64,000 nucleotides of DNA from Ignavibacteriota bacterium (GTDB lineage Bacteria > Bacteroidota > Ignavibacteria > UBA10030 > UBA6906): the NCBI GenBank assembly GCA_003157485.1, contig PMJQ01000099.1, positions 5,660 through 69,659 on the forward strand, read 5' to 3'. Below the pieces are notes generated by a model. That model did no database searches, was not told the origin of the DNA, and saw nothing but the letters and a program-made list of their open reading frames with translations. Positions within the stretch are counted from its first letter, which is position 1, and every line of letters starts with the position of its first letter. The position numbers were made by a program, and so were the translations under genes. Below, one piece after another: positions 1,377-21,647 of this stretch.

Positions 1377-1408
1377 ATCGCATCAATTTACGTGGGAATA
1401 AAAGTCTC

Positions 1409-1618
1409 TCAGGCGGGATCGAACCCGCCGGGATGAAACGGATGACAGCGGCCGATGCGCTTCAGCGCGCGCCAGAGCCCGCGCCCCGCCCCGTATTTGG
1501 AAACCGCGTCCATTGCATACTGGGAACATGAAGGGGAGAATCTGCACGTGTTCGGGGGGAGAAGCGGGGAAACAAGCACCTGGTACGCCCGGAGGACAAG
1601 AAGCACGCCATGTTTCAT
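1409..1618 (-). CDS. yidD: Membrane protein insertion efficiency factor YidD
   Basis: 69 aa with a YidD-like sequence ([37 protein letters not shown]). It lies in the conserved position between rnpA and yidC. Confidence 0.9.
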
Positions 1619-2004: not shown

Positions 2005-2151
2005 CTACCGTTCGTCGCTTACAGTAAGTTTCTTCCTGCCGCGAGCCCGCCGCCGGGCGAGCACTTTTCGCCCGGTTTTCGTTGCCATGCGGGCGCGGAA
2101 TCCGTGCGTGTTCTTACGCTTCCTGTTGTGTGGCTGAAAAGTGATGCTCAT
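2005..2151 (-). CDS. rpmH: 50S ribosomal protein L34
   Basis: Not in the ORF track because it is under 60 aa. Hand translation from the ATG (complement of 2149-2151) gives [48 protein letters not shown], a clear L34 signature. Its stop abuts the rnpA start. Confidence 0.85.
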
Positions 2152-2290
2152 CCCGAACTCCCGCACTTTGTGTCAGAATCCCAGCAATCACCGGACATTC
2201 GTACAGCCGGATATATCACGTGAAGGGATACAAGGTATAAAAATTATGCCATAGACACAAGGAAACCCCAGGGAAAAAGAAATATTGATC

Positions 2291-2319
2291 TTGCGTCGGC
2301 TTCCCCATTGTAGTATAAT
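2291..2319 (+). promoter_or_regulatory. Sigma70-like promoter candidate (TTGCGT-17 nt-TATAAT) facing dnaA
   Basis: The -35-like hexamer at 2291-2296 and a perfect -10 TATAAT at 2314-2319 are separated by a 17-nt spacer. The element lies ~290 nt upstream of the dnaA ATG, with the DnaA-box cluster between it and the gene. Confidence 0.4.
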
Positions 2320-2427
2320 CTGAGAGTGAAGCGTTGCGATCCCCGGGTGCACAATTTGTTAACAAGTCCCAGTTCGGTTTAAGCCCCACCGTGTCAACTG
2401 CTCTCTGGTTTCCGATCTGATTCCGGA

Positions 2428-2583
2428 TGTTGATAATCGACAAAACCACCAGCAAATGACCCGATTTTAGGATGGTTTTGTTTTCCACAAAGCTGTTGAT
2501 AAGTTATTGATACTTTTCTTCCCGCGTGTCACCGTGTGCACTGTTGATAGTTTTGTTGATAACCTCGCCCGCGGTGTGCATAA
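2428..2583 (+). promoter_or_regulatory. Cluster of DnaA-box-like 9-mers upstream of dnaA
   Basis: Exact TGTTGATAA appears three times (2428-2436, 2494-2502, 2554-2562). Also present are TGTTGATAG (2542-2550), TTTTCCACA (2481-2489, the reverse orientation of the box) and TGTGCATAA (2575-2583). All are within one mismatch or so of the canonical TGTGGATAA/TTATCCACA. Confidence 0.55.
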
Positions 2584-2606
2584 CCCTCTAATCTATTGGA
2601 CGACAA

Positions 2607-4079: not shown

Positions 4080-4467
4080 TTTCGATCAGTGTGTTTAATT
4101 ATGTTCACAACATTGTGAGGAGTGTGTGATCTGTCGTGTAACGACTGTGCATACTTCATTCCTTGTTCTGTTACTTGCTCTTCACACCAATCTTTGTGCA
4201 TGGAACATTCCTCTGTGCACACGCTGACATTTCAAGTTCTTTCTCACCTTACTCTGCATACCTGAGCAGCACTCACCGCTTCTTTTGACCGTCTGACACT
4301 TCTCCACATATAAACACAGCTTATAATAAGTATTACTCTTATATATAGACACGTAAGAAGAGATACCACGGTTTCATGGAAGGTTGTTTTTCCATGGCTT
4401 TTTGCATAAATTATAAGGGTTTTTCTTCTCATGTAAATGTTCATCTAGTCCACCTCAGGAGAATGCA
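4080..4467. promoter_or_regulatory. AT-rich dnaA-dnaN intergenic region; candidate DNA unwinding element / oriC segment
   Basis: This 388-bp spacer has visibly lower GC than the ~60% flanks. It contains runs such as ACATATAAACACAGCTTATAATAAGTATTACTCTTATATATAGACACG (about 4300-4350). A single DnaA-box-like TTCTCCACA sits at about 4299-4307. The dnaN RBS (AGGAGA) is at its 3' end. Confidence 0.45.
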
Positions 4468-5580
4468 ATGAAATTCACCGCCAACAGCATTGAACTCCAG
4501 CGCACGCTAAATAAGGTCGGTGGTGTAGTTCCCTCAAAATCCACCATGCCTATTCTCGAAAATATTTTGTGTGAATTGTTGGGAAATATGCTGACACTGA
4601 CGGCGACGGATCTCGCAATTTCGTTGACGGTATCTCTTCAGGTTCGCGGTTCGGAAGACGGCAGAATTGCCATTCCCGCGAAACGACTTATGGATACGAT
4701 GAAATCGCTCCCTGATACAAGCACGACGTTTTCCATCGATACCGGGGCAAATAAAATCAAAATTACGACGGAAAACGGAGAGTACGGACTGACGGGAGAA
4801 ACGGCAAAGGACTTTCCGCCCGTTCCGCCGTTTAAGGGTACATCAGAGTTTTCCATAGACAGTAACATTCTGCGCGGCCTTATTCACAGGACCACATTTG
4901 CCGTAAGCACAGATGAACTGAGACCTGCCATGATGGGGGTATTATTTCAGGCAAAGGATACGGACCTGCGCGCGGTATCGACGGACGGACACAGGCTGGT
5001 AAGGCTGACCTACAGGCAGCAAAAGCCGCTTACGATGAAAAAGGACATTGTTATTCCGGCCAAGGCACTTCTCATCCTCGGCAAGTCCATAGACGAAGGA
5101 GATACGGCAATAAGCGTCAGCGATACGCATGTGAAGTTTACGTTCGGTCCGTCGTTCCTTGTCTCCCGCCTCATCGACGAAACGTACCCGACGTATGAAG
5201 CGGTGATCCCCGCGGAGAACGACAAGCAGATGACTGTCAAACGGGACGACATGATTTCCTCTATTCGGCGTGTTGCGCTCTACGCCAGCGCGACAACGCA
5301 TCAGATTCGGTTTGACATTGTGAAATCCGCGCTCCAGATAACCGCCCAAGACCTCGATTTCGGCGGCGAGGCCAAGGAGACAATTCCGTGCACATTTACG
5401 TCGGATGCGCTCGAGATAGGATTCAATTCCGCATATCTGATCGACATCCTTTCGCACCTTGAAAGCGAACAAGTGACGTTCCGCTTCAGCACGCCGACGC
5501 GGGCCGGCATTGTTGCGCCAGTGGGAAGTGACAGCGACACCGTGCTCATGCTAGTAATGCCGGTGCGGTTGAATACATAA
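4468..5580 (+). CDS. dnaN: DNA polymerase III beta sliding clamp
   Basis: 370 aa starting MKFTANSIELQRTLNKV..., with an AGGAGA RBS upstream. It occupies the canonical position after dnaA. Confidence 0.95.
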   Translation: MKFTANSIELQRTLNKVGGVVPSKSTMPILENILCELLGNMLTLTATDLAISLTVSLQVRGSEDGRIAIPAKRLMDTMKSLPDTSTTFSIDTGANKIKITTENGEYGLTGETAKDFPPVPPFKGTSEFSIDSNILRGLIHRTTFAVSTDELRPAMMGVLFQAKDTDLRAVSTDGHRLVRLTYRQQKPLTMKKDIVIPAKALLILGKSIDEGDTAISVSDTHVKFTFGPSFLVSRLIDETYPTYEAVIPAENDKQMTVKRDDMISSIRRVALYASATTHQIRFDIVKSALQITAQDLDFGGEAKETIPCTFTSDALEIGFNSAYLIDILSHLESEQVTFRFSTPTRAGIVAPVGSDSDTVLMLVMPVRLNT

Positions 5581-6758
5581 GGGGTGTTGCCACATGCTTC
5601 CCCGACGCGGTCCCGCCTCCGGCGGGACCGCTGTATTGACGGGCACGCCACAGACCATGATCCTTTCCAGAATCAGACTCGGCAACTTCCGGAACCATGC
5701 TGCAACGGCCATCGAGTTGGGTGGGGGTATTAACGCCTTTCTCGGCGACAACGGTCAGGGAAAGACAAACATACTGGAAGCGGTCTCGTATCTCAGTCTT
5801 ACGAAGAGTTTCTATGCATCCGGCGACTCCGAAGCGATTGAGATCGGTACCGGGGGATTTGACGTTGAAGGGGTCCTTGTCTCTGACGCGGGGGTGCAGC
5901 ACCAGGTCAGCGTGACATGCGCGCGGCTGCCGCAGGCGAAACGGTTTCTCATCAACGGCTCGCCGCCGGAACGGCTTGCCGCAGTCATCGGACGGTTCCC
6001 CGTTGTCGTCCTTTCCCCGGAAAAAGGTCCCATAACGTTTGGCGGCCCGGGCGAGCGAAGAAAATTCATGGACCTTGCCCTCTCGCAAGTAAGCGGCGCG
6101 TATCTTGAGGAAATCCTCGAATACCGGAAAGCGCTCAGGCAACGGAACAGGATACTCACCAACAACCGCGCAAAGGGCTTTCTGCCGCCCGGAGTGATCG
6201 AGCCGTGGACGGAAAGCCTGGTGGCCTACGGGAGCAGAGTTGCGCACCGCCGTGCGATGTTTGTCACCGACCTACGCAGCCACATCGTAAGCGCATACCG
6301 TACGATAATGCCGGAGGCGGAGACTCCGGACATCGCCTACGTTTGCGGGTTCGCAGCGGGGGAAGGCGCTGACGCCCGGGCATATGCGGCGTCTTTGTCC
6401 GCGGATCTTGAAACGAGGAGTACCGAGGAGCGCCGGCGCGGCCTGACCCTTGCGGGTCCTCACCGGGACGATCTGCTTCTGACGATCAACGGAATGAACG
6501 TACAGCGGTTTGCCTCGCATGGGCAGCACAAGACACTCCTTGTGGCTATGAAGATTGCGGAATATTCCTATATGCAGGAGAGGCACAATGAAACACCGAT
6601 GCTCCTCCTGGACGATGTGTTCAGCGAGCTCGACAAGGGGCGCGTCCACCGTATCCTCTCCTTCGCCGCAGGGCTCGGGCAGGTGATGATCACGGCGACA
6701 GAGGGAACAGTGTTCGGCTCCTCGATCGCGTGGGGAAGACAGAACAGGAGATTTATCG

Positions 6759-9174
<2,416 letters not shown>

Positions 9175-9212
9175 ACGAGCAGCCACTCCGGAACAACACA
9201 CTCTGAAACGCC

Positions 9213-11951
9213 ATGGCAACTGTGAACGAAAAAATCATCCCGGTCGACATTGAAGATGAAATGAGGGGATCGTACATCGACTACTCGATGTCGGTCATTG
9301 TCGCGCGTGCCCTCCCTGACGTGCGTGACGGACTGAAGCCGGTGCACAGGCGGGTGCTCTTCGGGATGCAGGAACTCGGGCTGGCGGCAAACCGCGCCTA
9401 CAAAAAGTCGGCGCGCATCGTCGGCGAGGTGCTGGGGAAATATCATCCGCACGGCGATTCGGCGGTATACGATACCATGGTGCGCATGGCACAGGACTTC
9501 TCCATGCGCTATCCGCTCGTGGACGGCCAGGGGAATTTTGGGTCTGTTGACGGCGATTCGCCCGCGGCGATGCGGTACACCGAGGCGCGCCTGTCGCGCA
9601 TCGCGGAGGAGATGCTGAAAGACCTCCAGAAGAACACCGTGGATTTTGTCCCGAACTTCGACGACACGCTTACGGAACCCTCCGTCCTCCCCGCGGTAGT
9701 TCCGAACCTCCTCGTCAACGGCACGAGCGGCATCGCTGTCGGGATGGCGACAAACATCCCGCCGCACAATCTCGGAGAAGTTGTCGACGGATGTATCGCC
9801 CTTATCAGGGACGAGTCCCTGACCGACGAAAAGCTCATGAAGTTTGTGAAGGCGCCGGATTTCCCGACGGGAGGAATCATATACGGGTTCGAAGGTGTGA
9901 AGAGCGCGTACACGACCGGACGGGGAAGGATTGTCGTACGTGCGAAGGCGAGCATCGAGACAGGGAAGAACGACAGACAGAGCATCGTGGTGACGGAGAT
10001 TCCGTACCAGGTCAACAAAGCGAACCTCATCGAGAAGATCGCCGATCTCATCAATGAGAAGAAGCTCGAGGATATTGCGGATATCCGCGACGAGTCGGAC
10101 AGGGACGGGTTCCGGATCGTCATAGATCTGAAACGCGACTCGAACGCGGAAGTCATCCTGAATAACCTGTACAAGCACACGCAGATGCAGACGACGTTCG
10201 GGGTCATTATGCTTGCGCTCGTGGAGGGAAGGCCGAAAATCCTCACGCTGAAGGAGATGATCCGGCGGTTTATCGATCACCGGAATGAGGTTGTCGTCCG
10301 GCGCTCGAAGTTTGAGCTCGACGAGGCGGAGAAACGCGCGCACATCCTCGAGGGATACATCATCGCGCTCGACAACATTGACGCGATTGTAAGGCTCATC
10401 AAGGGATCGAAGGACGTCGAGACCGCCCGGACCGGGCTGATGAAGAAGTTCAAGCTGTCGGAGATCCAGGCGAAGGCGATCCTGGAGATGCGTCTCCAGC
10501 GTCTCACGGGACTCGAGCGGAAGAAGATCGAGGACGAGTACCGCGAAACGATAAAGCTCATCGAACGGCTCAGGGCTATCCTGAAGAGCAAGCAGCTCCA
10601 GATGGAGATTATCAAGGATGAACTCCTTGAGATCCGGAAGAACTACGCCGACGAGCGGCGTACGGAGATCGTGTACACCGCCGAAGAGTTCAGCATTGAA
10701 GACATGATCGCGGAAGAGCAGGTCATGATCACGATAAGCCACGGCGGGTTCATCAAACGATTTCCGGTAAGCGGGTACCGCCGCCAGACACGGGGAGGGA
10801 GGGGGAGTACCGGTGCAACGACGAGGGAAGATGACTTTATCGAGCACATGTTCGTGGCGAGCACACACGATTACATCATGCTCTTCACGAACGAAGGGAG
10901 ATGCTACTGGTTGAAGGTGTTCGAGATCCCGGAGGGGGGGAGGGCGTCACGCGGGAAATCGATTGCCAATCTTATCTCCAAGGAGCAGGCGGATTCCATT
11001 GCTTCGTATGTCTCTGTCAAGAACTTCGAGGACCCCCTATTCGTGCTCATGGTGACGGAGCAGGGAATGATAAAGAAGACCCCGTTGAGCGAGTTCAGCA
11101 ATCCGCGCAGGACAGGGATCGGCGCGATCGGGCTTGCAAAGGGGGACAGGCTCATCGAAGTCCGGATGACAGATGGGTCGCAGGACGTCGTAATAGGGAC
11201 GCACGACGGACTGGCGATCCGGTTTCACGAGCAGGAGGCCCGCCCCATGGGACGCTCGGCGGGAGGCGTGCGGGCCATACGGCTTGACAAGAAGGACAGG
11301 GTCATCGGTGCGGTGGTGCTCAGGAAGAGCGGGACGACGATTCTTGTGGCGACCGAGAAGGGTTTCGGCAAGAGGAGTGAGCCGGATGAGTACCGCGTCA
11401 GCCACCGGGGCGGGAAGGGAATATTCACCGTAAAGACTACGGATAAAACCGGCAGGATGGTTGCCATTCGGGAAGTTCTGGAGTCCGATGACATTGTCGT
11501 CGTCTCAAGCGGCGGGATCGTGATCCGGCAGCATGCTTCCGAGGTCCGGCTTGCCGGAAGGAATACGCAGGGCGTCCGCCTGATAAAACTCGGCGAAAGG
11601 GACACGGTGTCGGATGTTGCTTCCGTGATGGCGGAGGATCAGGATATCCCGGATACAAACGGAAAAAAAGGAGGGGACTCACCCGAAGGCGAAAAAAAAA
11701 CTCTGATCCGGAACAGAAGTAACGCAACAAAAGGGAAGGCGAAAGAGAACGGCGCCTCCAATATCCCAGCTTCAACCGCACGTGAGGCGGAAAGCGCAAA
11801 AACTTCCGTACCGCGGAAGACGGCACCCGGCAAGAGGCCGGCGGTCAAAACGATACCCCGGCATGCCGGGAAGCCGAAACGGGAACAGCGTTCGCCCGCG
11901 AAGGCACGCACTCTGATGCGCGGCCGGAATCAGAAGAAGAAACGAAAATAG
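9213..11951 (+). CDS. gyrA: DNA gyrase subunit A with a ~110-aa Lys/Arg-rich C-terminal tail
   Basis: 912 aa with the catalytic region ([10 protein letters not shown]) and the GyrA-box region (QTRGGRGS). A strongly basic low-complexity tail follows the beta-pinwheel domain (...[30 protein letters not shown]...RNQKKKRK). Confidence 0.95.
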
Positions 11952-11964
11952 ATCCCCGTGCCCC

Positions 11965-14133
11965 TCAGATCATGCCGCTTCGTTTGCGTATGATCCATTC
12001 AGCGGAAAACAGGGCGATCACGAGTGCGAGCAAGTACGGCCAGCGGTGAAGCTCGATTGCCTCCGTTTTCTGCTCTTCGCGTGCGGCAAGGGGTCCGAGT
12101 GTGCGGAGCTTTTCCCGCAAATTCCCGGCATCCCTGGAAGGGAGATACTCTCCGCCCGTCCTGTAGGCAATCTGGCGGAGAATCTCCGCATTCATCCTCG
12201 TGTCCAGGTATTCCAGGTTCAGGCCGCCGACAAGAAATGAGCCCGAGTCGTGTCCGGCATCATGTCCCCCCTTTGAAGCGGCGGCCCTGAAGGTAAAATC
12301 CCCAGCCGGAAGCCCCTCCACGGAACCGTCGTACCTTCCGCTTCCCAGCGGGTGCAGGTCGGTGTGAATGCTTGCGCCGCCGCCGGAAATCTCAACAGAG
12401 ACCTGTGCGTCGTCAACCGGCTGAGATTCCTCATTGTACACCTGCCCTGAAAAGGCGACCAGTTCTCCCCGGGAGAACTGGTCGCGGACCGGAACGACGC
12501 GGACGTTTCGCCCTTCGTCTCGCGACGTGAGCCAGCGGAGAGCCGAAGAGAGAAAAGAGGCAAACTGCGGCGCCGTATCTGGATTTCCCTGAGCCATAAG
12601 GCGCCACCGCCAGAGACCGTATCCCATAATGCTGAGCGACCGCGTGCCGGCGATGTCACGGACAGCCATAAACGGTTGGGGAAGGAGGACATTTCCTATC
12701 CGTGGGGACCCGAGTGCGACGGATCCTTCGCGGAGTCGATAAGCCGCCCGGGATGCAAAGACCGGCGGGAGATTGCTCCACACGTCGCGCCGGGTATCCG
12801 GCCCGAGCGCCAGAAGTGGGTTTTCAAGACGGAACGGATCGGGCACGAATTCAACTTCCCGCTCACCCGGAGTCGATTCCTCCTGAATCACCGGAAGCGA
12901 AGGCGCCATCGCGGGGAGTTTTGACTGATCAATCGATTTTCCCCCGACGAACAGGAGGGGCTTTTTTCCTTCGGTTATTGCCGATCGCAGAAGTTCCACC
13001 GCGCCTGCCGCCGTTGACGCATCGGGCATCCCAATGCACAGGATACAGTCTGCGCTGTCGACTGCCCGGGGTGTCAGCGCGCCTTCATAGTATCCCCCGC
13101 CGAGTTTCTGCGTCAGCGCCTGCACGGATATGTTGGGATTCTCCGCAAGAGTCGTCCGGATGACGCTCAGATCCGGGCTTGGACCCGATGCGAGAATGAG
13201 AACGCGCATCGTGCTCCTTAGGACCTTTACGACGAAGAACCGCCTGTTATTCGCGGTTGTCAGTTCACCGGGAAGAGGGGAGACATTTACGGAGTACCGG
13301 TGGGAACCCTCTCCCGCCGGGGCATACGAAAGCCTGGCGGGTGCCTCCGCCGTTCCGCCGGGAAGCAGAACCGTTGTCCGGTCGAGCGTCCTTGTCCCCT
13401 CGCTGAGCGTTACCTCAACTTTCTCCCCGCCGTAGCCCGAGCTCTTGATGACCGCGTCGACAGGCGCCATCGCGCCGGCATACACGATGTCGTTTGCCGT
13501 GACGCGGGAGACCAGAACATCCTTCTGCTCCGCCGTATCGCCGATGCCGATCGGAAAGATGGGGATGCCCAGGTCGCCCGCTCTGTACACGGGGTTATCT
13601 CCCTTCGTGAACATTCCGTCCGTCAGCATGACGACCGCCCGGATATTATGACTCTCCCGTTGGTGTACGAGCTCGCGAAGCGCGCCGGCGATATCGGTGA
13701 CTTCATCGCTGAGGGTGTCGGGCGGCTGCGCAAGAGGTCCCCGGAGCGATGCTCCGAACGAATAGAGAAGCGTTTGAACTCCCGGGGGGACGGTCCCGGG
13801 AACGACGTCAGCAAGCAGGGTTCTGATCTGTGCGGCCCGGTCCCCCGTCCCGTCCACGATTGTCATGCTGGCGCTTCTGTCGGCAAGGACTGCAATGACA
13901 GGCGGATGGCGGATCACGGTCGACGTACGGAGGACGGGTTCCAGGAGCAGGAGGAGGACAAGAGCGAGGGCCGTCCCGCGAAGAACGCTGAGGGTAATCC
14001 GTCGTGAGCGCGCCACCGGCGGAAGCGTGAAACGGTAAAAGAAATAGGAGAGGCCGGCCGCAAGGCCGATCAGGAGCGCGGCGAAGAGCAGGGACGAAGT
14101 AAACGAAAACTCGATTGACGGGAGGCCGAACAT
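11965..14133 (-). CDS. VWA-domain membrane protein with N-terminal double-transmembrane domain (BatA-like)
   Basis: Two N-terminal TM helices are followed by a VWA MIDAS motif (DRSASM, DxSxS) and an LTDG motif. A long C-terminal region resembles a class-I amidotransferase-like domain. The gene lies immediately downstream of the MoxR ATPase. Confidence 0.65.
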   Translation of the reverse strand: MFGLPSIEFSFTSSLLFAALLIGLAAGLSYFFYRFTLPPVARSRRITLSVLRGTALALVLLLLLEPVLRTSTVIRHPPVIAVLADRSASMTIVDGTGDRAAQIRTLLADVVPGTVPPGVQTLLYSFGASLRGPLAQPPDTLSDEVTDIAGALRELVHQRESHNIRAVVMLTDGMFTKGDNPVYRAGDLGIPIFPIGIGDTAEQKDVLVSRVTANDIVYAGAMAPVDAVIKSSGYGGEKVEVTLSEGTRTLDRTTVLLPGGTAEAPARLSYAPAGEGSHRYSVNVSPLPGELTTANNRRFFVVKVLRSTMRVLILASGPSPDLSVIRTTLAENPNISVQALTQKLGGGYYEGALTPRAVDSADCILCIGMPDASTAAGAVELLRSAITEGKKPLLFVGGKSIDQSKLPAMAPSLPVIQEESTPGEREVEFVPDPFRLENPLLALGPDTRRDVWSNLPPVFASRAAYRLREGSVALGSPRIGNVLLPQPFMAVRDIAGTRSLSIMGYGLWRWRLMAQGNPDTAPQFASFLSSALRWLTSRDEGRNVRVVPVRDQFSRGELVAFSGQVYNEESQPVDDAQVSVEISGGGASIHTDLHPLGSGRYDGSVEGLPAGDFTFRAAASKGGHDAGHDSGSFLVGGLNLEYLDTRMNAEILRQIAYRTGGEYLPSRDAGNLREKLRTLGPLAAREEQKTEAIELHRWPYLLALVIALFSAEWIIRKRSGMI

Positions 14134-14145
14134 CGGAGGCGGTCG

Positions 14146-15144
14146 TCAGCCCGCTTCCTGGAGCAATCGCTCAACGATTTCAATCGCGGTTACCCCGTCC
14201 GCTTCGGCGTTGAAATTCGGTACGATCCGGTGACGGAGCGTTGGGCCCGTGACCTTCCGCACGTCGGCGATGTCCGGCGAATGGCGGCCGTCGAGAAGCG
14301 CACGCGTTTTGGCACCGAGGATGAGGCTCTGAGATGCCCGCGGTCCCGCACCCCAGCTGAGCCATTCACGGATGAATTTGGGGGCGCTGTCCGATTTTGG
14401 CCGCGTCATCGTGGTGATGCGCACGGCATAGTCTATCACGTTATCCGCAACCGGAACTTTCCGAACGAGATCCTGATACGCGGCAATCTGTTTTCCCGTG
14501 AGGATCCGGCGCGGCGTGGGGCGCGCCATGCTCGTCGTCGCCTTCACGATGCGTATCTCCTCGTCGTGCGAGGGATAATCGACCCACAGGTTGAACATGA
14601 ATCGGTCAAGCTGGGCTTCCGGAAGCGGGTACGTGCCTTCCTGTTCGATGGGATTCTGTGTGGCAAGGACGAAAAATGGCTCCTGTAGCGTATAGGTCTG
14701 GCCGGCCGCGGTGACGCGGTGTTCCTGCATGGCCTCGAGAAGCGCCGCCTGCGTCTTCGGCGGGGTGCGGTTGATTTCGTCCGCCAGGACGACGTTTGCG
14801 AATACCGGTCCACGGACGAACTTGAACGACTTCGAGCCGGTGGTGACGTTTTCCTCGATGATCTCCGTCCCCGTGATGTCGCTCGGCATCAGATCCGGCG
14901 TGAACTGGATTCGGTTGAACGTGAGGTCAAGGACCTCAGCGAGAGTCTTGATGAGGAGAGTCTTCGCAAGCCCGGGCACGCCGACGAGAAGGCAGTGTCC
15001 CCTCGCAAGGAGCGCGATAAGAAGCTGCTCGACGACAGTCTCTTGGCCGATGATGACAGTTCCGATCTCGGCACGGAGCGCATCGTAGGACGCCTTCAGG
15101 TCCTTTGCGGCGGCGACATCCCCCGCACCTTCGCGTCCTGTCAT
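14146..15144 (-). CDS. MoxR-family AAA+ ATPase
   Basis: Classic MoxR Walker A and core (GHCLLVGVPGLAKTLLIKTLAEVLDLTFNRIQFTPDLMPSDITGTEI). The start was revised to the ATG at 15144-15142, which overlaps the stop of the upstream SurA-like gene as ATGA. The track start at 15300 would overlap SurA by 160 nt. Confidence 0.9.
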   Translation of the reverse strand: MTGREGAGDVAAAKDLKASYDALRAEIGTVIIGQETVVEQLLIALLARGHCLLVGVPGLAKTLLIKTLAEVLDLTFNRIQFTPDLMPSDITGTEIIEENVTTGSKSFKFVRGPVFANVVLADEINRTPPKTQAALLEAMQEHRVTAAGQTYTLQEPFFVLATQNPIEQEGTYPLPEAQLDRFMFNLWVDYPSHDEEIRIVKATTSMARPTPRRILTGKQIAAYQDLVRKVPVADNVIDYAVRITTMTRPKSDSAPKFIREWLSWGAGPRASQSLILGAKTRALLDGRHSPDIADVRKVTGPTLRHRIVPNFNAEADGVTAIEIVERLLQEAG

Positions 15145-16405
15145 TGGGTCAACCGCATCTGCCAGTAGAACTGGTTCTTCAGCTCCTCCATCCAGGTCTG
15201 GTAGTCCTTCGTCCTCTTGAAATTCAACGCGATCGCTTCCACCTTGTGATAGTCCTGATCGAGAGTCATCACGTGCGCGGGAGTTCGTTTCCGGAGCCAC
15301 ACTATGTAGTACCTGTATCCCGTGTTCTCGGGGACCTTGACCGGGGCGCTGATATCTCCCTCTTTGAGCGTGTCAATGGCGGGACGGAACGCCTGATTCA
15401 CCTGGTCAATTTCCGCGGTGCCGATATTTCCGCCGATCGTGTTGTCCCTCAGTTCGGAGTATTTCCTAGCCAGCTCGGCGAAGCTTTCCCCTCCAAGCGC
15501 GCGCGTGCGCAGTGAATCCAGAAGCCGGATTGTGGCGTCGTCCCCCTCTTTCGACCGTTCAATTCTCAGGAGAATATGGCGGGCGTGGACCGCGTCCCCC
15601 CGGCGCTCAACAAGCTGGATAATATGAAGCCCGTGCTCCGTTTCCACGATGTCGGAAATCTGGCCGTCGGACATCGCGAAGACCGCAGATTCAAACTCCT
15701 TGACGAACATCCCGCGCCGCACGAATCCGAGATCACCCCCCTGGGCGGCCGAACCGGGGTCCTGCGAATACCGTTTGGCCATCGCTGCAAAATCGGTCCC
15801 GGTTCTCACGCTGTCGAGGATCCCCTGCAGCTTTGCGCGTGTTGCCGCCTTCGCCCGTTCGTCCGGCTTCGGCGCAACGCCGATTTCCGAGAGCTCGCAT
15901 TCCTCGGGCACGCGGGGAAGACTGTCCTTATATGTGCGGTAGAAATCCTCCACCTCGAACCGCCCGACAGTCGTGTTCCCCAGATGTTGTTGCTGGAGTT
16001 TCTGGGCGAGGAGGTTTTTGCGAAGGTCGTCCCGAAATTCCCGTTTGATGCGGGCGAGCGGCATTCCGTACATCTCTTCAAGGCGGGATTCGGATCCGTA
16101 TTGCTGCACGCGCTGCTGGATGACAGCGTCCATCTGCTGCTGGACTTCATCGTCGGTGACGGTGACGCTGTCTTCAACGGCCTTTGCGATGACGAGCTTT
16201 TCGTTTATCATGGATTGCAGCACCTGTGCGCGCAAACCGGGCGTTGCGGGATCGACCTTGTTGTTCAGCGCGTAGAACTGCACCTGGGCGTTCAGCTCCG
16301 ATTCAAGGATCAGTTCGTTGTCGACTGTCGCCACAATCCGGTCGAGCGTCTGCGCCTGGACGCAGATCGGGTATAAAAGCGCAAACAGGAAAAAGATTCT
16401 CTTCA
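15141..16405 (-). CDS. SurA-like periplasmic chaperone / peptidyl-prolyl isomerase (two parvulin domains)
   Basis: The start was revised to MKRIFFLFALLYPICVQAQ (signal peptide) with GGAG about 10 nt upstream. It has a SurA N-domain plus parvulin motifs (GGDLGFVRRGMFVKEFESAVFAM...HGLHIIQL). The track's first Met at 16604 adds 66 aa of low-complexity sequence. Confidence 0.8.
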
Positions 16406-16455
16406 TAACATCTCTGCTCCGATTACGCCAGGGTTTTCCCCGCCGGGAGCGGGGG

Positions 16456-17349
16456 TCATTCGCCGGTCGCACCTGCGGTGTCCGCGACGGCGAGGTTGAC
16501 CTCGACCTTGTGGCGAGTCCGCAGATCCGACACGAGCTGTTCATAGCGGATGCGGCGGCGCTCGATAAGCAGGCGCTCCCGCACCTCGTCTTTGACGTAC
16601 TCAAACTCCGGCGTTTCTCCGACGTGTTTTATGGCGTGCACCGTGAGCACATAATATCCCGCGGCAGCCTTCACGACATAGGAGACTTCCTCCTTCGGAA
16701 GCGTCCGGGCGAGTTTCCAGAGCTCCTCGGGGAAGAGCGTCCCCTGTGAGAAATATTGATTCCGCGCGACTGCCCGCAGTGCACGGCTGTGCACGGAATC
16801 CCGCCGGCATGCCGCGAGAGCGTCCTCCCATGATGAGCCGCGGAGCACGGCAGCGCGAAACTGATTGGCCTCATCACGCTCGGAAAAGAGCGCGTAACTT
16901 ACGCGTGCCACCTCTTCGCGGAGTGTGAACGAGGAAACGCTCTTCTTGAAGGCCCCCGCCACATCTTCATCCGATACCTCTTCTGTTCCAGCGCCATACA
17001 CTTCCTTCTCGAGCAATGCCCCTATCGCGAGGCGTTTCCGGGTTGCCTCAAGCTGCTCACGGAGCTGGTCAGAATCCGCCAGCCCACGGCGCTGGGCTTC
17101 CTGGTACAGAAGCTCGTTGACAACCCATTCGTTGATGAATGCCATCGATTTCCCTCTTGCGCGCGCAAGGGAATCCGCGGGTCCGGCAAGATCGCCCTCC
17201 CTCAGCTCAACCGAGCCGACCCTTGCGACGTAGGGCCGTGACGGCCCCTCGCGGGAGCATCCCGCGCAGAGCATTATAAGGAGAAGGCACAGATGCGCTA
17301 CGCGGGACGGCCGGAACCGTGGGCCATCAGCGGACAGTGGCGAACGCAT
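16456..17349 (-). CDS. SurA-N-domain-like lipoprotein (PPIase-family chaperone with degenerate parvulin domain)
   Basis: Candidate lipoprotein signal ending ...LLLIMLCAGCS. The sequence is similar to SurA and PrsA N-terminal chaperone domains. The start is uncertain; candidates are the ATGs at 17376, 17349 (31-aa signal peptide, used here) or 17274, and the gene overlaps the end of the upstream gene. Confidence 0.5.
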   Translation of the reverse strand: MRSPLSADGPRFRPSRVAHLCLLLIMLCAGCSREGPSRPYVARVGSVELREGDLAGPADSLARARGKSMAFINEWVVNELLYQEAQRRGLADSDQLREQLEATRKRLAIGALLEKEVYGAGTEEVSDEDVAGAFKKSVSSFTLREEVARVSYALFSERDEANQFRAAVLRGSSWEDALAACRRDSVHSRALRAVARNQYFSQGTLFPEELWKLARTLPKEEVSYVVKAAAGYYVLTVHAIKHVGETPEFEYVKDEVRERLLIERRRIRYEQLVSDLRTRHKVEVNLAVADTAGATGE

Positions 17350-19684
17350 TTTTGAGAATCGGTTTGTACTCCACAACCGGATACTTCTGCCTCAGCTTGG
17401 TAAGCCACTCGCCTTCGAGCCGTTTCGACTCATAGTCCTGGTACGTGCTGGAAAGCTCCGGGCCTGCCTCCTCGTACGTCTTTCGGTGTGTGCCGTCCCT
17501 CGCGTTGAGTCTGACGATCGTGTAATACCCCTTGTAGAGGAAGGGGGAGCTCACGGCGCCGACCGCGAGCGAATCCGCGTGCTGGGTGCGCTCATCGGTT
17601 GCCGGGGGGAGGATCATTGTTTCCGGCATGACTGCCACAAGGGGGGTCCGGCCGGTGAGTTCTGTGCGGATGACGTCGGTTTCATCCCGCAGCTCGGTCG
17701 CGGCTCCCGGGGAGAGCGGGTATGTCACTGTTGTCACCCGCGCAGGGTTCACGGAAAGCTTCCTGACAAGGTACTGCCTGACTGCCTCAAGCCGCGCCGC
17801 CGCAAGTTTCAGGCTCTGCTCCTTCGCGCCGGTGGTGTCCGGGCGTGCGGTGATAGTGATGCGGAGGGCGGAATCGTGATGCATTTCGGCTGCCGCAGTG
17901 CCGAGCACGGTCAGTCCCTTCGCGGCGGGTTTCGCCGAGCCGCGCGCGAAGGGTATTCGCCCGCCGGTGGGTGCCGCCATCCGGAGGGAATCACGTTCCG
18001 CGATCGTCTCGATCGTCTCACCCGAGCGGAGCAAACCGGAAATCACATCTGTGAGCGAGTCGGATCCTCCTCTGATTGCAGTGAAGCTGATACGGTCGGG
18101 CCACGTAAAATTGTCCCTGTGGGCGTTGAAATACGGCTTGAGAACGGTATCGCCCATGACGATTCTGTTCCAGACGTGTTCCTGCTCGACCTGGTAGAGC
18201 AGGATTCCTTCGCGGTATTCTGCCAGAAGTGCGGCGAATTCCGGCACGCTCTTCGCGAGAAGATCCGCCTTTGCCGAAAAGACAAGGTGCTCGCCGATCT
18301 CATTCACGGCGGTGCTGAGGGGCAGTGCCCGCAGCGACGTTCCGCCCTGGTCGGGTCGCGCGTTTATAAGATGCACGGTGCTGTCAAGAGAGACCTGATG
18401 TCCCTGGAGGGAAAAAAGCGGCTGCGCACCGAGATCGGGCGTGACCCCCGACCACCACGCGCTGTCGTGCGTCGATTTTGACGAGTCCAAGGATGCCAGA
18501 AACCTCCGGAGCGTGGCATCGAACATCTCAAAACGCACTTCCTTCTTCAGCCCGGCGAGAAACTTCGCATAATCGTCCTGGTACCGGAGCTGCTGGTAGA
18601 TCGGCTGGAGCTCCTGCTTTGCCGCCTCGAATGTCTTTCGGGGACGGACGTCGAAGCACTTGATGAGGTGGTACCCGTACGGTGTGCGGACGATGCCGGA
18701 CACCTGGCCAGGCGTGAGGTTCATTGCCACTTCGTCGAAGGGTTGCACCCAGCGCCGCCGCGAAAAGTATCCGAGATCTCCGCCCCGGCCGGCGGAACCG
18801 GGATCCTCCGAGTGACTCTTTGCAAGCGACGCAAAGTCCTCTCCTGCTGCAAGGCTGTCCTTCAACGCTTTGATCTTCGCAAACGCCTGGGCGGTGTCCT
18901 GCGGCGACGGATTCTGGTTCTGGAACCTGATCATGATGTGGCTCGCGTGCACTTCCCCGGGCGAACGCTTGCGATCGACGATTTTGATTATGTGAAGTCC
19001 ATACTGCGTGCGGACGGGCACGGAGGATACTTCGCCGATCTTCATGCTGAAAGCCGCGTCCTCGAACGGCGTGACGAGTTGTCCTGCCGTGAAGTAATAG
19101 AGGTCGCCTCTGTTGAGCTTCACCGATGGGTCCTGGGAATTCTCCAGGGCAAGAGCCCCGAAATCGGCGCCCGACTTCACCGCGGCAATGATCTCGTATG
19201 CCTTCTTATATGCCGCTGCGGAATCCGCCGGAGTCGCAGTCGGGCTGAGCGTCAGGAGTATGTGGCTGGCGCGGATTTCCTCGTTCTGCCTGGCATAGAG
19301 CTGCCTGACCCCGGGGGCGATGATCTCCCTTTCCGTAAGGTAGGAGGACGCAAGGTTCCCTTTGTATGCCCCGATCTCATACACGACCCCGGGGAGCGAG
19401 TCGAGTCCCTCGCCGTATGCGCCCGCAAGCTTCAGCCGGTATTTGACGACCAGGTCGAGAAACTTCTCGCGGTCGTCCTGACTTGTTGCCGCGGCCGCTT
19501 CCCGGCTCCCCAGGCTCTTGACATACTGCTGTTCGTACTCCGAAAGCTTCAAGGGTTGGGTGCCAATTGTGGCAACGACTGCGTCCTGCTCCGCCGGGGC
19601 ACAACCGGCGTACATGATCGATCCGAGTATCATCGCGGCAAAACAGAATCGACTGTGAGTCTTGGCCTGTTGAGACATGCGCAT
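17327..19684 (-). CDS. PpiD/SurA-family peptidyl-prolyl isomerase, 785 aa
   Basis: N-terminal signal or lipobox (MYAGCAPAE), followed by a SurA N-like region and two parvulin-type rotamase domains (SHILL... and HASHIMIRF... segments). Confidence 0.7.
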   Translation of the reverse strand: MRMSQQAKTHSRFCFAAMILGSIMYAGCAPAEQDAVVATIGTQPLKLSEYEQQYVKSLGSREAAAATSQDDREKFLDLVVKYRLKLAGAYGEGLDSLPGVVYEIGAYKGNLASSYLTEREIIAPGVRQLYARQNEEIRASHILLTLSPTATPADSAAAYKKAYEIIAAVKSGADFGALALENSQDPSVKLNRGDLYYFTAGQLVTPFEDAAFSMKIGEVSSVPVRTQYGLHIIKIVDRKRSPGEVHASHIMIRFQNQNPSPQDTAQAFAKIKALKDSLAAGEDFASLAKSHSEDPGSAGRGGDLGYFSRRRWVQPFDEVAMNLTPGQVSGIVRTPYGYHLIKCFDVRPRKTFEAAKQELQPIYQQLRYQDDYAKFLAGLKKEVRFEMFDATLRRFLASLDSSKSTHDSAWWSGVTPDLGAQPLFSLQGHQVSLDSTVHLINARPDQGGTSLRALPLSTAVNEIGEHLVFSAKADLLAKSVPEFAALLAEYREGILLYQVEQEHVWNRIVMGDTVLKPYFNAHRDNFTWPDRISFTAIRGGSDSLTDVISGLLRSGETIETIAERDSLRMAAPTGGRIPFARGSAKPAAKGLTVLGTAAAEMHHDSALRITITARPDTTGAKEQSLKLAAARLEAVRQYLVRKLSVNPARVTTVTYPLSPGAATELRDETDVIRTELTGRTPLVAVMPETMILPPATDERTQHADSLAVGAVSSPFLYKGYYTIVRLNARDGTHRKTYEEAGPELSSTYQDYESKRLEGEWLTKLRQKYPVVEYKPILKNAFATVR

Positions 19685-19785
19685 CCTCGAGCTTTGGAAT
19701 AGTGAACGACGTTAACGTAATAAGGAGAATTCGTAGATCTGTATACTAAAGAAAACAGGAGTGAGAATCAAGAAATCGCGGGGCC

Positions 19786-21036
19786 TCAGCCTGCGACGGA
19801 AAGCGCCTGGTCAAAATCGGCCTCGATATCCTGAATTCCTTCGATTCCTACCGAAATCCTTATCATCCCCGGGGTGACCCCGTGACGAGCAAGTTCGGCG
19901 GCGCTCATATTCACGTGGGACGAATACAGGGGGATGCTCACAAGCGTTTCAACTCCCCCCAACGACATCGCATTGACTGCGACACGTAGCGCGTCGCACA
20001 CGCCTGCCGCGCCGCGAGCACCGCCCGGCACCTCGATTGTTACCATGCCGCCGAATCCGTCCCCTCCCGCGCCGGTCATCTGCCTCCTGGCAATCTGATG
20101 CCCCGGATGCGAAACGAGACCGGGATACAGAACGCGCTTCACCCGGGGATGTGCTTCAAGAAAACCTGAGAGTGCCATCGCATTGCGATTCTGGCACCGG
20201 ACCCTGAGATCAAATGTCTTCAGGCTGCGCAGGAGAAGATACGCGGCAAAGGGGTCCGCGCATCCGCCGTAGTACTTGAGCTGGGTGTGGGCGCCAGATA
20301 TGAACGACGCGGTCCCGGCGACGACGCCGGCCATGACATCGGTATGCCCGCCCAGATACTTGGTCGCGCTCTCCAGGAGCACGTCAGCACCGAGTGCCAG
20401 CGGATTCTGATTGCGGACGGTGGCGAATGTGTTGTCGGCAAATGTCAGAATCCTGTGGTGCACCTTCTTCGCGGCCTGGCGTGTCCGAAACACAAGCTCA
20501 GCGATGTCCACGATTCCCAATGTCGGGTTTGTGGGCGTTTCACAGTAGATGATCTTTGTCCTTTTGGTTGCCATCGAGACGATGGATCCGAGCGCGTCCG
20601 GCCGGATGTAGCGCACCGTGATCCCGTGACGCGGCAGGATATCCCGAAAGAAACGGTAGGTTCCCCCGTACAGCGCCGGCGTGCTGAGAATTTCGTCCCC
20701 TTTCTTCACGACGGAGAGTATTGCCGAGGTGATTGCCGCCATCCCCGACGAGAACAGAAGTGCCTTTTCCGTTCCCGCCATAAGCGCGAGGTGCTCCTCC
20801 GCTTCCGTCACCGTAGGGTTGTGGTAGCGGGTGTACACGTACACATCGGGGTCCCCCTGCGCGTAGCGGATCGCATCGCCCGAGTCAGCGAATCTGTATG
20901 TGGAGGTCTGGACGATCGGGGGGGCGACGGGTCCCCGGAACGCGTACAGCTTCTTCCCGTGTATTGCCCGGGTGGCGAGCGACTGTTGTTCGGGGAGAGG
21001 AGCGGGGGACTTCACTCGTGTGTGTCCTGTTTTCAT
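19786..21036 (-). CDS. PLP-dependent Cys/Met-metabolism enzyme (cystathionine gamma-synthase / beta-lyase / methionine gamma-lyase family)
   Basis: Contains the PLP-lysine motif SATKYLGGHTDV and has the length and overall pattern of the family. Confidence 0.85.
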   Translation of the reverse strand: MKTGHTRVKSPAPLPEQQSLATRAIHGKKLYAFRGPVAPPIVQTSTYRFADSGDAIRYAQGDPDVYVYTRYHNPTVTEAEEHLALMAGTEKALLFSSGMAAITSAILSVVKKGDEILSTPALYGGTYRFFRDILPRHGITVRYIRPDALGSIVSMATKRTKIIYCETPTNPTLGIVDIAELVFRTRQAAKKVHHRILTFADNTFATVRNQNPLALGADVLLESATKYLGGHTDVMAGVVAGTASFISGAHTQLKYYGGCADPFAAYLLLRSLKTFDLRVRCQNRNAMALSGFLEAHPRVKRVLYPGLVSHPGHQIARRQMTGAGGDGFGGMVTIEVPGGARGAAGVCDALRVAVNAMSLGGVETLVSIPLYSSHVNMSAAELARHGVTPGMIRISVGIEGIQDIEADFDQALSVAG

Positions 21037-21647
21037 CGGGTGCTTTCGCTGTTATGTAGGTGATAGGGAAGGAGTGCCGCATACACCCAGAGTGTCGCGA
21101 CGATGTCATCGGGGACCTCGGCGGTGATCCCCTCGTGCGTACAGACGTCGCGAATCTGTTCCGCGCGGCGGCGCTCGTCTGACGGGGCGCCCTCAAACGG
21201 CCCGAACACGATCCTGGAAGGTCCAGAAGCAACGGTGATTTCGCCTGGGCGCGTGATCGTGGAATAGATATACGCAACCCCGCCGAAAACCACGCACTCG
21301 GGCAGCGCGCGATTGAGCGTTGCTTCATTGGCGACGCCGGTTTGAAGACTGATGATGACCGTCGAAGGACCCAGAAGGGGTAAGAGCGCGAGAATGGCCC
21401 GCTCGGTGGGGTGCGATTTGACGCAGAAGAAGACCGTGTCCACGGGTCCGATCTGGGCGGGGGATCCGACACACCGTTCCGGGGGAACCCGCAATGACCG
21501 TCCTGGGGACGTCATACGCAACCATTCCCTGCGAATCGCGTCCAAGTGGGACCCGCGTGCCGTGAACATGACATCATTCCCCGCCGCTGCCAGCATCGCG
21601 CCGAAGAACGCGCCGACGCCCCCTGCACCGATCACGGCAAATCGCAT
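21033..21647 (-). CDS. 2-dehydropantoate 2-reductase (PanE/ApbA) N-terminal Rossmann domain protein, apparently C-terminally truncated
   Basis: Begins with the PanE N-terminus MRFAVIGAGGVGAFFGAMLAAAGNDVMFTARG. It stops after ...DIVATLWVYAAL, where the ApbA_C domain should begin, and its stop overlaps the start of the downstream gene by 4 nt. Confidence 0.55.
   Translation of the reverse strand: MRFAVIGAGGVGAFFGAMLAAAGNDVMFTARGSHLDAIRREWLRMTSPGRSLRVPPERCVGSPAQIGPVDTVFFCVKSHPTERAILALLPLLGPSTVIISLQTGVANEATLNRALPECVVFGGVAYIYSTITRPGEITVASGPSRIVFGPFEGAPSDERRRAEQIRDVCTHEGITAEVPDDIVATLWVYAALLPYHLHNSESTR

Follow-up and report, generated by a model that had tools for sequence, protein, structure and literature searches.

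A SurA-linked MoxR operon in Bacteroidota as a variation on the MoxR-VWA/Bat theme

Related systems and the layout of the locus

In the RavA-ViaA, CbbQ-CbbO and NorQ-NorD pairs, a gene for a MoxR-family ATPase stands beside a single VWA/MIDAS gene with no DUF58 gene, and the presumed role of these pairs is the maturation or assembly of other proteins. In these pairs the VWA partner is a cytoplasmic protein, and the clients are enzymes of the cytoplasm or the membrane. Little is known of what MoxR-proper ATPases act on. An ATPase of this kind (AAA_3) opens the Bat operon, which runs MoxR, DUF58, BatA/BatB (VWA), TPR proteins and BatD, and its VWA partner has two N-terminal transmembrane segments, a VWA domain with a MIDAS, and a C-terminal transmembrane segment. 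In BB0173, a BatA-like protein, the VWFA domain was placed in the periplasm by experiment (PMC5700661). Bat operons affect survival of oxidative and heat stress in Riemerella (PMC11834572), and a spirochaete study presents the Bat role in oxidative stress as unproven (PMC3557215).

Tandem parvulin chaperone genes, of the kind that make up the SurA/PpiD/PrsA network, are found across Bacteroidota. Periplasmic chaperones are thought to act without ATP, which the periplasm lacks, and in E. coli SurA/PpiD-type chaperones are not encoded with an ATPase. Our literature search found no paper linking MoxR with SurA, PpiD or parvulins.

The locus described here brings the two kinds of gene together. 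Five genes run head to tail on the minus strand of the window (the whole stretch of 64,000 nucleotides that was analysed), from 19684 to 11965, as open reading frames read from the window sequence. An earlier note on this DNA had described this run, and all five reading frames are present where it placed them. What this work shows by computation is the order and overlap of the genes, the identity of their domains, the export signals, the predicted topology, the conservation of the locus and its exclusivity towards DUF58. The window sits in the conserved dnaA-dnaN-recF-gyrB-gyrA origin region. In the order of transcription, the features are:

19743..19771, minus strand: promoter-like TTGATT-N17-TAGTAT in the 101-nt gap upstream of the first gene; a putative promoter
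17327..19684, minus strand: 785-aa lipoprotein chaperone; SurA-like core, two parvulin PPIase domains, and a C-terminal extension that bears an OmpA-like domain
16456..17349, minus strand: 297-aa lipoprotein with one degenerate parvulin domain (Rotamase_2, Pfam E 6e-13)
15141..16406, minus strand: SurA, 421 aa, with signal peptide, SurA_N and two parvulin domains, 48 nt after the 297-aa gene
15141..15144, minus strand: ATGA, overlap of the SurA stop (TGA, 15143-15141) and the MoxR start (ATG, 15144-15142)
14146..15144, minus strand: MoxR AAA+ ATPase, MoxR-proper (AAA_3), 332 aa, without signal peptide
11965..14133, minus strand: VWA722, a 722-aa inner-membrane protein, starting 12 nt after the MoxR stop

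The junctions, from first to last gene, measure -23, +48, -4 and +12 nt, and similar spacing is found in about 40 species-level genomes. Both overlaps that the earlier note had reported can be read directly from the sequence. The ATG of the 297-aa lipoprotein gene lies 23 nt inside the end of the 785-aa gene (other loci typically have -17 to -26 nt), and the ATGA joins SurA to MoxR by a -4 overlap that is present in 7 close relatives as well and occurs independently in three other loci (L125, L130 and L132). The five-gene arrangement is far beyond chance and recurs in dozens of species. We infer from this that the five genes form one operon and are co-transcribed.

Transcription probably starts from the conserved promoter-like site at 19743-19771. 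A relaxed -35/-10 pattern has its single match in the operon region there, upstream of the first gene, and the hexamers are invariant across an alignment of 8 relatives. Such a site precedes the first gene in 20/35 related loci, as against 2/45 upstream of MoxR. A scan with sigma-70 and terminator models, which may misfit the promoters of this phylum, gave nothing above shuffled expectation and no site at the gene junctions. A separate promoter or terminator between SurA and MoxR, which the earlier note had regarded as telling against the linkage, was thus not found there or at any other junction. An Rfam scan of 11500-21500 returned no match.

Chaperones, ATPase and membrane protein

All three chaperones carry conserved signal or lipoprotein sequences. 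The 785-aa protein has two Rotamase matches in Pfam and an OmpA match at aa 579-654 (29.1 bits against a cut-off of 27.2), aligns with the SurA structure PDB 1m5y across both parvulin domains (E 2e-27), and scores better with the NCBIfam model for SurA (E 7e-33) than with that for PpiD (E 1.4e-20). Its lipobox, AGCSP, is kept in homologues. PpiD is a transmembrane-anchored protein with a single, inactive parvulin domain, whereas the protein encoded here has a lipoprotein signal, an OmpA-like domain and a pair of parvulin domains aligning with SurA. In the strict sense it is not a PpiD, and the label "PpiD-like" that it had been given is a loose one. The 297-aa lipoprotein, whose lipobox Cys is conserved, had been called SurA-N-like, a loose name, since only the degenerate parvulin Rotamase_2 scores in Pfam. 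The third protein is a canonical SurA of the kind known from the SurA/PpiD/PrsA network, with SurA_N (40.2 bits against a cut-off of 30.8), a Rotamase and a Rotamase_3 domain, and a signal peptide whose cleavage site, between AQA and Q (AxA, then Q), is kept in homologues, themselves annotated as SurA.

Pfam bears out the assignment of both this double-parvulin SurA and the MoxR that follows it. MoxR matches AAA_3 (E 1.8e-64) and AAA_lid_2 (E 2e-12), and aligns with PDB 2r44 over near-full length (E 1.5e-74). The Walker A (GVPGLAKT) and Walker B (LADEINR, within VVLADEINR) motifs show no change when the protein is aligned with four other MoxRs. The protein is 60% identical to a MoxR from a MoxR-DUF58-BatA operon, and the NCBIfam RavA model matches it only at E 1e-4. 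In the 64-kb window, tblastn found no second MoxR. The partner arrangement recalls the RavA/CbbQ-type pairs, but the body of the VWA protein is predicted to be periplasmic here, and the ATPase belongs to AAA_3 and not to the RavA or CbbQ group.

The earlier note had described the last gene product as a BatA-like VWA protein with a double transmembrane segment at its N terminus. This description stands by profile and structure model, although Pfam gives no match for the 722-aa protein alone, and the Pfam BatA model matches neither VWA722 nor 31 of its homologues. Profile and structure analysis gives the order two N-terminal transmembrane segments, VWA domain with intact MIDAS, CARDB-like Ig domain, GATase1-like domain, Ig domain and C-terminal transmembrane segment. 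Compared with PDB entries, a profile built from the 31 homologues matches VWA domains at aa 78-200 (4rck; BatA, 4jdu; BatB, 3ibs), CARDB at aa 207-304 and GATase1-like proteins at aa 355-505. In the AlphaFold (AF2) model (pLDDT 87), the alpha/beta VWA fold spans aa 67-200. The MIDAS residues D85, S89 and D172 do not vary among the 31 homologues, at least 90% of which also have S87, and T146 is invariant in a closer set of 14. An hhalign comparison of VWA722 with a Pfam-BatA protein, which takes in the double-transmembrane region, gives a probability of 96.9% (E 1.9e-10), and at profile level VWA722 is a remote homologue of BatA. A Foldseek search with the whole model returned uninformative multidomain matches (OST48, complement, glycosidases), the sole specific match being to the CARDB domain.

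Across the 31 homologues, the net charge is +3.2 for the loop between the N-terminal transmembrane segments and +2.8 for the C-terminal tail. By the positive-inside rule, the bulk of VWA722 (VWA-Ig-GATase1-like-Ig) is predicted to face the periplasm, and only the short, highly conserved loop YRxTLPP and the tail EWxIRKRSGM are predicted to be cytoplasmic. The homologue from a Balneolales-like contig described below does not keep the YRxTLPP motif in this loop. A probably periplasmic VWA domain, as in BB0173 (PMC5700661), is shared with the Bat partners, as are the AAA_3 ATPase and the arrangement of two N-terminal transmembrane segments, VWA/MIDAS and C-terminal transmembrane segment. The differences from Bat are also plain: VWA722 is about 400 aa longer, owing to the Ig, GATase1-like and second Ig domains, and fails the Pfam BatA model; the operon has no DUF58, TPR or BatD gene; MoxR is not the first gene; and the operon opens with three exported parvulin chaperones. 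None of the five operon proteins has a Pfam match to TPR (BatB/C/E) or BatD families.

Conservation of the linkage and the exclusion of DUF58

The gene-neighbourhood comparison that the earlier note had proposed was carried out, and the linkage is kept in relatives and in distant Bacteroidota classes. Loci were scanned for with a closer set of VWA722 sequences, the alignment of 31 being too diverse. Within the clade, 41/41 informative loci have MoxR upstream of VWA722, and in 37/41 genomes of related species MoxR is itself preceded by SurA. In four loci of one sublineage (L010, L012, L015 and L021), the MoxR-VWA722 pair stands apart from the chaperone genes. The unrelated flanks are less often kept than the SurA-MoxR-VWA722 order: a PLP enzyme gene in 23/32 clade loci, and gyrA within 600 nt in 16/39 and within 6 kb in 20/30. 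Five loci have a 2.2-kb insert between MoxR and the VWA gene that we considered as a candidate DUF58 gene; it encodes an S8 peptidase with a type IX secretion tail.

Searches for homologues of MoxR and SurA did not reach other phyla, as all matches among those listed belong to the same clade (at least 76% and at least 62% identical, respectively). The wider view came from a scan of metagenome loci. In many of these loci SurA lies upstream of MoxR, together with a large double-parvulin protein in most and a small Rotamase_2 protein in many, and Pfam confirms the parvulin-type upstream genes of the distant loci. These loci were assigned to Flavobacteriales, Spirosoma, Cyclobacteriaceae, Bacteroidales/Rikenellaceae, Salinibacter ruber and "Bacteroidetes bacterium"; their SurA proteins are 29-35% identical to that of the window, their GC content ranges from 0.29 to 0.66, and the gap between SurA and MoxR is often -4 to 10 nt. 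The scan overturned the idea that the SurA-MoxR linkage is mere order-level synteny near the replication origin. Judged from these comparisons, the chaperone-MoxR linkage is an ancient operon conserved across Bacteroidota.

Downstream of MoxR the genes vary in the distant loci, mostly without an adjacent VWA gene. Among SurA-linked MoxR loci, a VWA gene comes next only in this clade and in the Balneolales-like contig L096, which carries a small parvulin gene, SurA, MoxR and a full-length VWA722 homologue (hhalign E 1.7e-67), and whose neighbouring gene clusters with Fodinibius. In the lineages without an adjacent VWA gene, the partner is presumably encoded elsewhere. Distant relatives of VWA722 are found within MoxR-DUF58-BatA operons (L075, L070 and L078), and homologues in Bacteroidales, Saprospiraceae and others lie beside unrelated genes such as tsaD, with MoxR not nearby.

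The earlier note had also remarked that the DUF58 gene usual between MoxR and VWA genes is missing, and this generalises well beyond the window, where tblastn found neither DUF58 nor BatA in the 64 kb. A DUF58 gene is downstream in 0/15 SurA-linked MoxR loci as against 20/31 other MoxR loci (Fisher p = 1.7e-5). So strict an exclusion suggests that these MoxR loci form a functional class of their own; in a neighbour-joining tree of MoxR the SurA-linked and DUF58-linked ATPases are not cleanly separated, and we do not claim them as distinct paralogue families.

Possible functions of the linkage

The reading that we favour, and hold tentatively, is that one operon joins a set of exported chaperones to a MoxR-VWA module that would couple cytoplasmic ATP to envelope protein maturation. 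The chaperone set would consist of the membrane-tethered double-parvulin lipoprotein, with its OmpA-like domain of the peptidoglycan-binding type, the small degenerate-parvulin lipoprotein and soluble SurA, and the cytoplasmic MoxR ATPase and the BatA-related VWA722 would form the part that spans the inner membrane. From the gene neighbourhood and the predicted topology, we infer a dedicated envelope protein-maturation module across that membrane, in which MoxR contacts VWA722 and the pair cooperates with the chaperones on presumed envelope clients. MoxR could use ATP to assemble, activate or remodel VWA722 through its cytoplasmic segments, the periplasmic VWA/MIDAS platform could bind newly exported proteins or the chaperones themselves, and cytoplasmic ATP would thereby be coupled to the maturation of outer-membrane or secreted proteins. 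With MoxR in the cytoplasm and the chaperones in the periplasm, the two could be coupled only indirectly. Also weighing against this reading are the lack of an adjacent VWA gene beside the SurA-linked MoxR in most Bacteroidota, the VWA722 homologues with no MoxR nearby, the sublineage in which MoxR-VWA722 is parted from the chaperone genes, the changed loop of the Balneolales-like homologue and the unclean separation in the MoxR tree. A more specific version, in which the SurA-linked MoxR and VWA722 carry the energy of ATP across the inner membrane to drive or gate the folding and hand-off of outer-membrane proteins or type IX cargo by the parvulin chaperones, we consider unlikely; if true, it would provide Bacteroidota, whose periplasm is free of ATP, with an energised chaperone pathway that is absent from E. 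coli.

Genes may be grouped in an operon just to be regulated together, with no physical cooperation between their products, which counts against reading the locus as a module. The chaperone genes and MoxR, with or without the VWA gene, might simply share a transcript because both are needed under the same growth or envelope-stress conditions, and their products might have different targets and cooperate neither physically nor in one pathway, as the separate MoxR-VWA722 units of the one sublineage, the VWA722 relatives without MoxR or SurA nearby, and the fairly well conserved positions of the PLP enzyme gene and gyrA in an origin-region location would allow. However, the SurA-MoxR adjacency survives across several Bacteroidota classes with SurA identity down to about 30% and the downstream genes changing, short gaps (-4 to 10 nt) turn up independently, and DUF58 is strictly excluded, and co-regulation alone seems to us somewhat unlikely, if the most serious of the alternatives. 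Another possibility is that MoxR works without any VWA protein, as a cytoplasmic holdase or remodeller of outer-membrane or secreted precursors, or of the chaperones, before translocation. Its intact Walker motifs and lack of a signal peptide are compatible with this, as is the absence, in most lineages, of a VWA or DUF58 gene next to the SurA-linked MoxR. Yet a VWA gene directly follows MoxR here and in L096, distant relatives of VWA722 sit in MoxR operons, and to our knowledge every characterised MoxR acts with a VWA partner (RavA-ViaA, CbbQ-CbbO, NorQ-NorD, Bat; PMC11834572), and we think a VWA-independent role improbable.

The locus could also be a reduced Bat-type system for oxidative or heat stress that came to adjoin chaperone genes by accident, a reading that is about as improbable. 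The 60% identity to a Bat-operon MoxR, the remote homology of VWA722 to BatA and the stress survival role of Bat operons in Riemerella (PMC11834572) speak for it, but the operon lacks DUF58, the BatB/C/E TPR proteins and BatD, MoxR is the fourth gene and not the first, SurA-type chaperones are ancient and not accidental companions of MoxR, and the spirochaete study presents the oxidative-stress role of Bat itself as unproven (PMC3557215). A MoxR-vWA conflict or anti-phage system is highly improbable. The weak Pfam match of MoxR to bpMoxR (E 5e-11) is far surpassed by that to AAA_3 (E 2e-64), PADLOC gives only two marginal matches, both to MoxR (E 0.0012 and 0.0076), and leaves the other four proteins unmatched, and there is no beta-propeller or effector gene in this housekeeping region, which is syntenic across species.

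The SurA-linked MoxR operon is a variation on the MoxR-VWA/Bat theme, and its phylum-wide linkage points to an unstudied, ATPase-linked module for envelope maturation. The association of SurA with a MoxR that lacks DUF58, from Salinibacter to Flavobacteriales and Bacteroidales, makes envelope protein maturation a candidate MoxR pathway, and this clade together with the Balneolales-like contig reveals the likely membrane partner, a BatA-related VWA protein. The module may be a missing component of outer-membrane or type IX secretion biogenesis in Bacteroidota, a phylum that includes gut Bacteroides as well as fish and poultry pathogens.

Gene block and transcription signals

Five ORFs run head to tail on the minus strand, overlaps included, as the earlier note had described. 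They and their neighbours are as follows.

Features of the window
17327-19684, minus strand: first ORF, 785-aa double-parvulin lipoprotein
16456-17349, minus strand: second ORF, 297-aa small parvulin lipoprotein
15141-16406, minus strand: third ORF, SurA, 421 aa
14146-15144, minus strand: fourth ORF, MoxR, 332 aa
11965-14133, minus strand: fifth ORF, VWA722, the 722-aa BatA-related membrane protein (the name also serves for its homologue family)
19743-19771: promoter-like site (relaxed -35/-10 match) in the gap before the first operon gene
19786-21036: Cys/Met-metabolism PLP enzyme, separated by 101 nt from the first operon gene, upstream of it
1-11951: probable yidC (edge) and rnpA on the minus strand; dnaA (2607-4079), dnaN, recF, gyrB and gyrA on the plus strand

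The 297-aa ORF, counted from the ATG that gives it a lipoprotein signal, overlaps the stop of the upstream 785-aa gene by 23 nt, an overlap that had also been reported. SurA begins 48 nt past the stop of the 297-aa gene and VWA722 begins 12 nt past that of MoxR, while the ATGA said to be common to the SurA stop and the MoxR start lies exactly at 15144-15141. The ATG at 15144 is the correct start of MoxR: its homologues, 326-340 aa long, align with it from residue 1-9, and the PDB 2r44 alignment begins at residue 25.

A sequence scan found no promoter-like or terminator-like site at any gene junction, that of SurA and MoxR included, with counts not above shuffled expectation, in keeping with the single operon that had been proposed. 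The relaxed -35/-10 pattern has only three matches in 64 kb, and the hexamers of the site before the first gene are invariant among eight relatives while its flanks diverge. Of 35 loci, 20 have the pattern ahead of the first gene, against 2 of 45 that have it ahead of MoxR. The operon region matches no Rfam family.

The window is a replication-origin neighbourhood (rnpA, dnaA, dnaN, recF, gyrB, gyrA), and gyrA converges on the VWA722 gene at its downstream side across a 13-nt gap. The yidC at the window edge is probable, named solely by position and N-terminus, and oriC likely lies within 2001-6000, where GC falls to 0.51-0.53. A ketopantoate reductase (ApbA/PanE) ORF at 21033-21647 (minus strand), which shares 4 nt with the beginning of the PLP-enzyme gene, encodes only the N-terminal domain (204 aa) and may be truncated or frameshifted.

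Conservation of the SurA-MoxR linkage

A VWA722 relative was found at 68 loci when one genome per species was scanned, and most of these loci belong to MAGs of uncultured 'Ignavibacteriota' or 'Bacteroidota'; clade counts use loci with at least 36% identity. MoxR precedes VWA722 in all 41 informative clade loci and SurA precedes MoxR in 37 of these 41, so the linkage is conserved in the kind of neighbourhood comparison that the earlier note had suggested. Unrelated flanks are less well kept (PLP enzyme, 23/32; gyrA within 600 nt, 16/39). Gene spacing is tight in all clade loci, with the SurA-MoxR ATGA overlap retained in the seven closest relatives and gaps of 13-50 nt in most others. The four loci without SurA (L010, L012, L015, L021), where MoxR-VWA722 forms a pair of its own, preceded by unrelated or divergent genes, are monophyletic on the VWA722 tree, which points to one rearrangement. 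A conserved non-coding motif, roughly CCGAACTTTCGTACATT, lies ~60-90 nt upstream of MoxR in these four and may be the stand-alone pair's own promoter or regulatory site.

A basal group (L031, L033, L041, L042, L048, L073) has an S8 peptidase gene between MoxR and VWA722; the peptidase ends in a type IX secretion C-terminal domain. Such S8 subtilase inserts lie at L031:7839-9920 and L073:6192-7970, and also in L033, L041, L042, L048, L080, L082 and L085. The sister locus L069, in which MoxR is absent, has an S8 subtilase (6926-8995) directly upstream of its VWA722 homologue, and this points to an S8-VWA association of older date. The window encodes a 541-aa protein (42455-44080, minus strand) whose C-terminus resembles the T9SS-sorting-domain region of these S8 peptidases, which makes a type IX secretion system probable in the source organism.

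Beyond the clade, scanning metagenomes with an alignment of MoxR yielded 80 loci, 54-77% identical to the window MoxR and mapped by tblastn, of two kinds: those in which MoxR is followed by DUF58 and often then BatA, the canonical Bat-type arrangement, and those with a same-strand SurA directly upstream of MoxR and no DUF58 downstream, usually with genes for a small Rotamase_2 protein and a large one with two parvulin domains farther upstream. The missing DUF58 that had been noted here is thus general for SurA-linked loci: it is found in 0 of 15, versus 20 of 31 other MoxR loci (Fisher p = 1.7e-5; 46 loci informative on both sides). In many SurA-linked loci SurA shares just 29-35% identity with the SurA of the window, and GC ranges over 0.29-0.66. 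Exact look-ups of the MoxR proteins place SurA-linked loci in Flavobacteriales (L120, L135, L139), Spirosoma (L108, in a cluster including S. linguale DSM 74), Cyclobacteriaceae (L134), Bacteroidales/Rikenellaceae (L150), Salinibacter ruber (L095) and a 'Bacteroidetes bacterium' (L084), and Pfam verified the upstream chaperone genes in four of the assigned set. In L125, L130 and L132 SurA overlaps MoxR by 4 nt, and seven others have gaps of 0-10 nt; the genes 3' of MoxR vary between lineages.

A further locus, L096, in which a nearby gene clusters with Fodinibius (Balneolales), reads small parvulin, SurA, MoxR and, 11 nt on, a VWA722 homologue of full length (hhalign E 1.7e-67). More distant VWA722 relatives are located in MoxR-DUF58-BatA operons (23-26% identity; L075), adjoin a TPR-MoxR fusion with DUF58 (L070) or immediately follow a BatA protein (L078), and others, in Bacteroidales, Saprospiraceae and further lineages, adjoin tsaD or unrelated genes with no MoxR nearby. 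Adjacency of VWA722 to MoxR is therefore recurrent, not obligatory. The L070 fusion (12182-15580; 1132 aa, TPR plus MoxR AAA_3) is preceded by a VWA722-like gene and a 328-aa gene of unknown function; DUF58 and a small VWA protein come after it. A tsaD-VWA722 neighbourhood also recurs, with the VWA722-family gene immediately after tsaD and often a YbbR-like gene before (L055:3742-4734, L065:1610-2602, L072:6972-7988 and the contig of homologue P0064).

Encoded proteins and predicted topology

The 421-aa protein is a canonical SurA by Pfam, with a signal peptide, SurA_N and the two parvulin domains that had been ascribed to it. The 785-aa protein, called PpiD-like in the earlier note, is indeed a parvulin chaperone; its two parvulin domains, OmpA-like domain (aa 579-654, window 17723-17950; Pfam, 29.1 bits against a cut-off of 27.2; also NCBIfam Pal and YiaD), SurA-type core (aligned to SurA structures, E 2e-27) and lipoprotein signal, with an AGCSP box kept among relatives, make it a SurA-type lipoprotein and not a strict PpiD. 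OmpA-like domains usually bind peptidoglycan. The segment aa 590-696 is absent from homologues in the S8-insertion sublineage (L031, L033, L041, L042, L048). The 297-aa protein keeps a conserved lipobox cysteine, and its label 'SurA-N-like' is loose, its sole Pfam match being Rotamase_2, a degenerate parvulin.

MoxR is an AAA+ ATPase as named; it belongs to the AAA_3 type, its Walker motifs are intact, and it shares 60% identity with a MoxR encoded first in a MoxR-DUF58-BatA operon. A second MoxR gene in L048 (21771-22154; 56% identical to the window MoxR), ~10 kb downstream of VWA722 and with neighbours that extend beyond the locus end, makes it appear that genomes of the window's clade hold two MoxR paralogues.

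Searched singly, VWA722 has no Pfam or NCBIfam match; 13 of 31 homologues match Pfam VWA directly. A profile built from these 31 and compared with solved structures matched VWA domains at aa 78-200 (BatA and BatB fragments were among the structures), CARDB Ig domains (207-304), a GATase1-like protein (355-505) and, weakly, Ig-like domains (near 545-636). Across the 31, D85, S89 and D172 do not vary and at least 90% retain S87; T146 is invariant in a closer set of 14. Against a Pfam-BatA-carrying protein, hhalign gave a probability of 96.9% over aa 12-371, double-TM region included, so 'BatA-like' is right as remote homology, although VWA722 is ~400 aa longer than BatA. The AlphaFold model (pLDDT 87) has four globular domains, the expected N-terminal double-TM domain (helices 15-32 and 42-63) and a C-terminal helix (699-718).

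Net charge over the 31 homologues is +3.2 in the TM1-TM2 loop and +2.8 in the C-terminal tail, and the N-terminal stub and the segments bordering the large body have a neutral or negative charge. The positive-inside rule predicts a periplasmic VWA-Ig-GATase1-like-Ig body and leaves just YRxTLPP (loop) and EWxIRKRSGM (tail), both among the most conserved stretches, in the cytoplasm. The VWFA domain of BB0173, a BatA-like protein, is periplasmic by experiment (PMC5700661) and matches this orientation. MoxR has no export signal, so contact with VWA722 is possible only at such short cytoplasmic segments, and we infer that it occurs at the loop or tail.

Possible role of the module

The chaperone-MoxR operon and the main inference drawn from it stand, and the linkage is broader than could be known from the window. 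From sequence, the locus can be read as an operon of exported parvulin chaperones that is ancient in Bacteroidota and closes with a DUF58-less MoxR; in the window clade and a Balneolales-like lineage it is extended by MoxR's likely membrane partner, VWA722. Beyond the observed gene order, domain identity, export signals, predicted topology and conservation, the most economical mechanism has two steps, both of which we infer: cytoplasmic MoxR would use ATP to assemble or remodel VWA722 via its loop and tail, and the periplasmic VWA/MIDAS-Ig platform would then bind newly exported clients or chaperones. The type IX secretion S8 peptidase inserted in basal lineages hints at secreted cargo as one client.

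The chief competing account, that chaperones and MoxR are co-regulated without cooperating, is possible and yet rather doubtful. A purely cytoplasmic role of MoxR, acting on precursors, strikes us as improbable, and to the same degree so does a reduced aerotolerance system. A defence system was rejected as extremely improbable, because PADLOC returned only two marginal MoxR matches.

MoxR-VWA systems and the Bat operon are already known from earlier papers (PMC11834572; PMC5700661; PMC3557215). In the open full-text literature we found no paper on a SurA/PpiD/parvulin-MoxR linkage; MoxR family reviews may mention it. The SurA-MoxR linkage offers a testable pathway for an orphan ATPase family, in tractable organisms.
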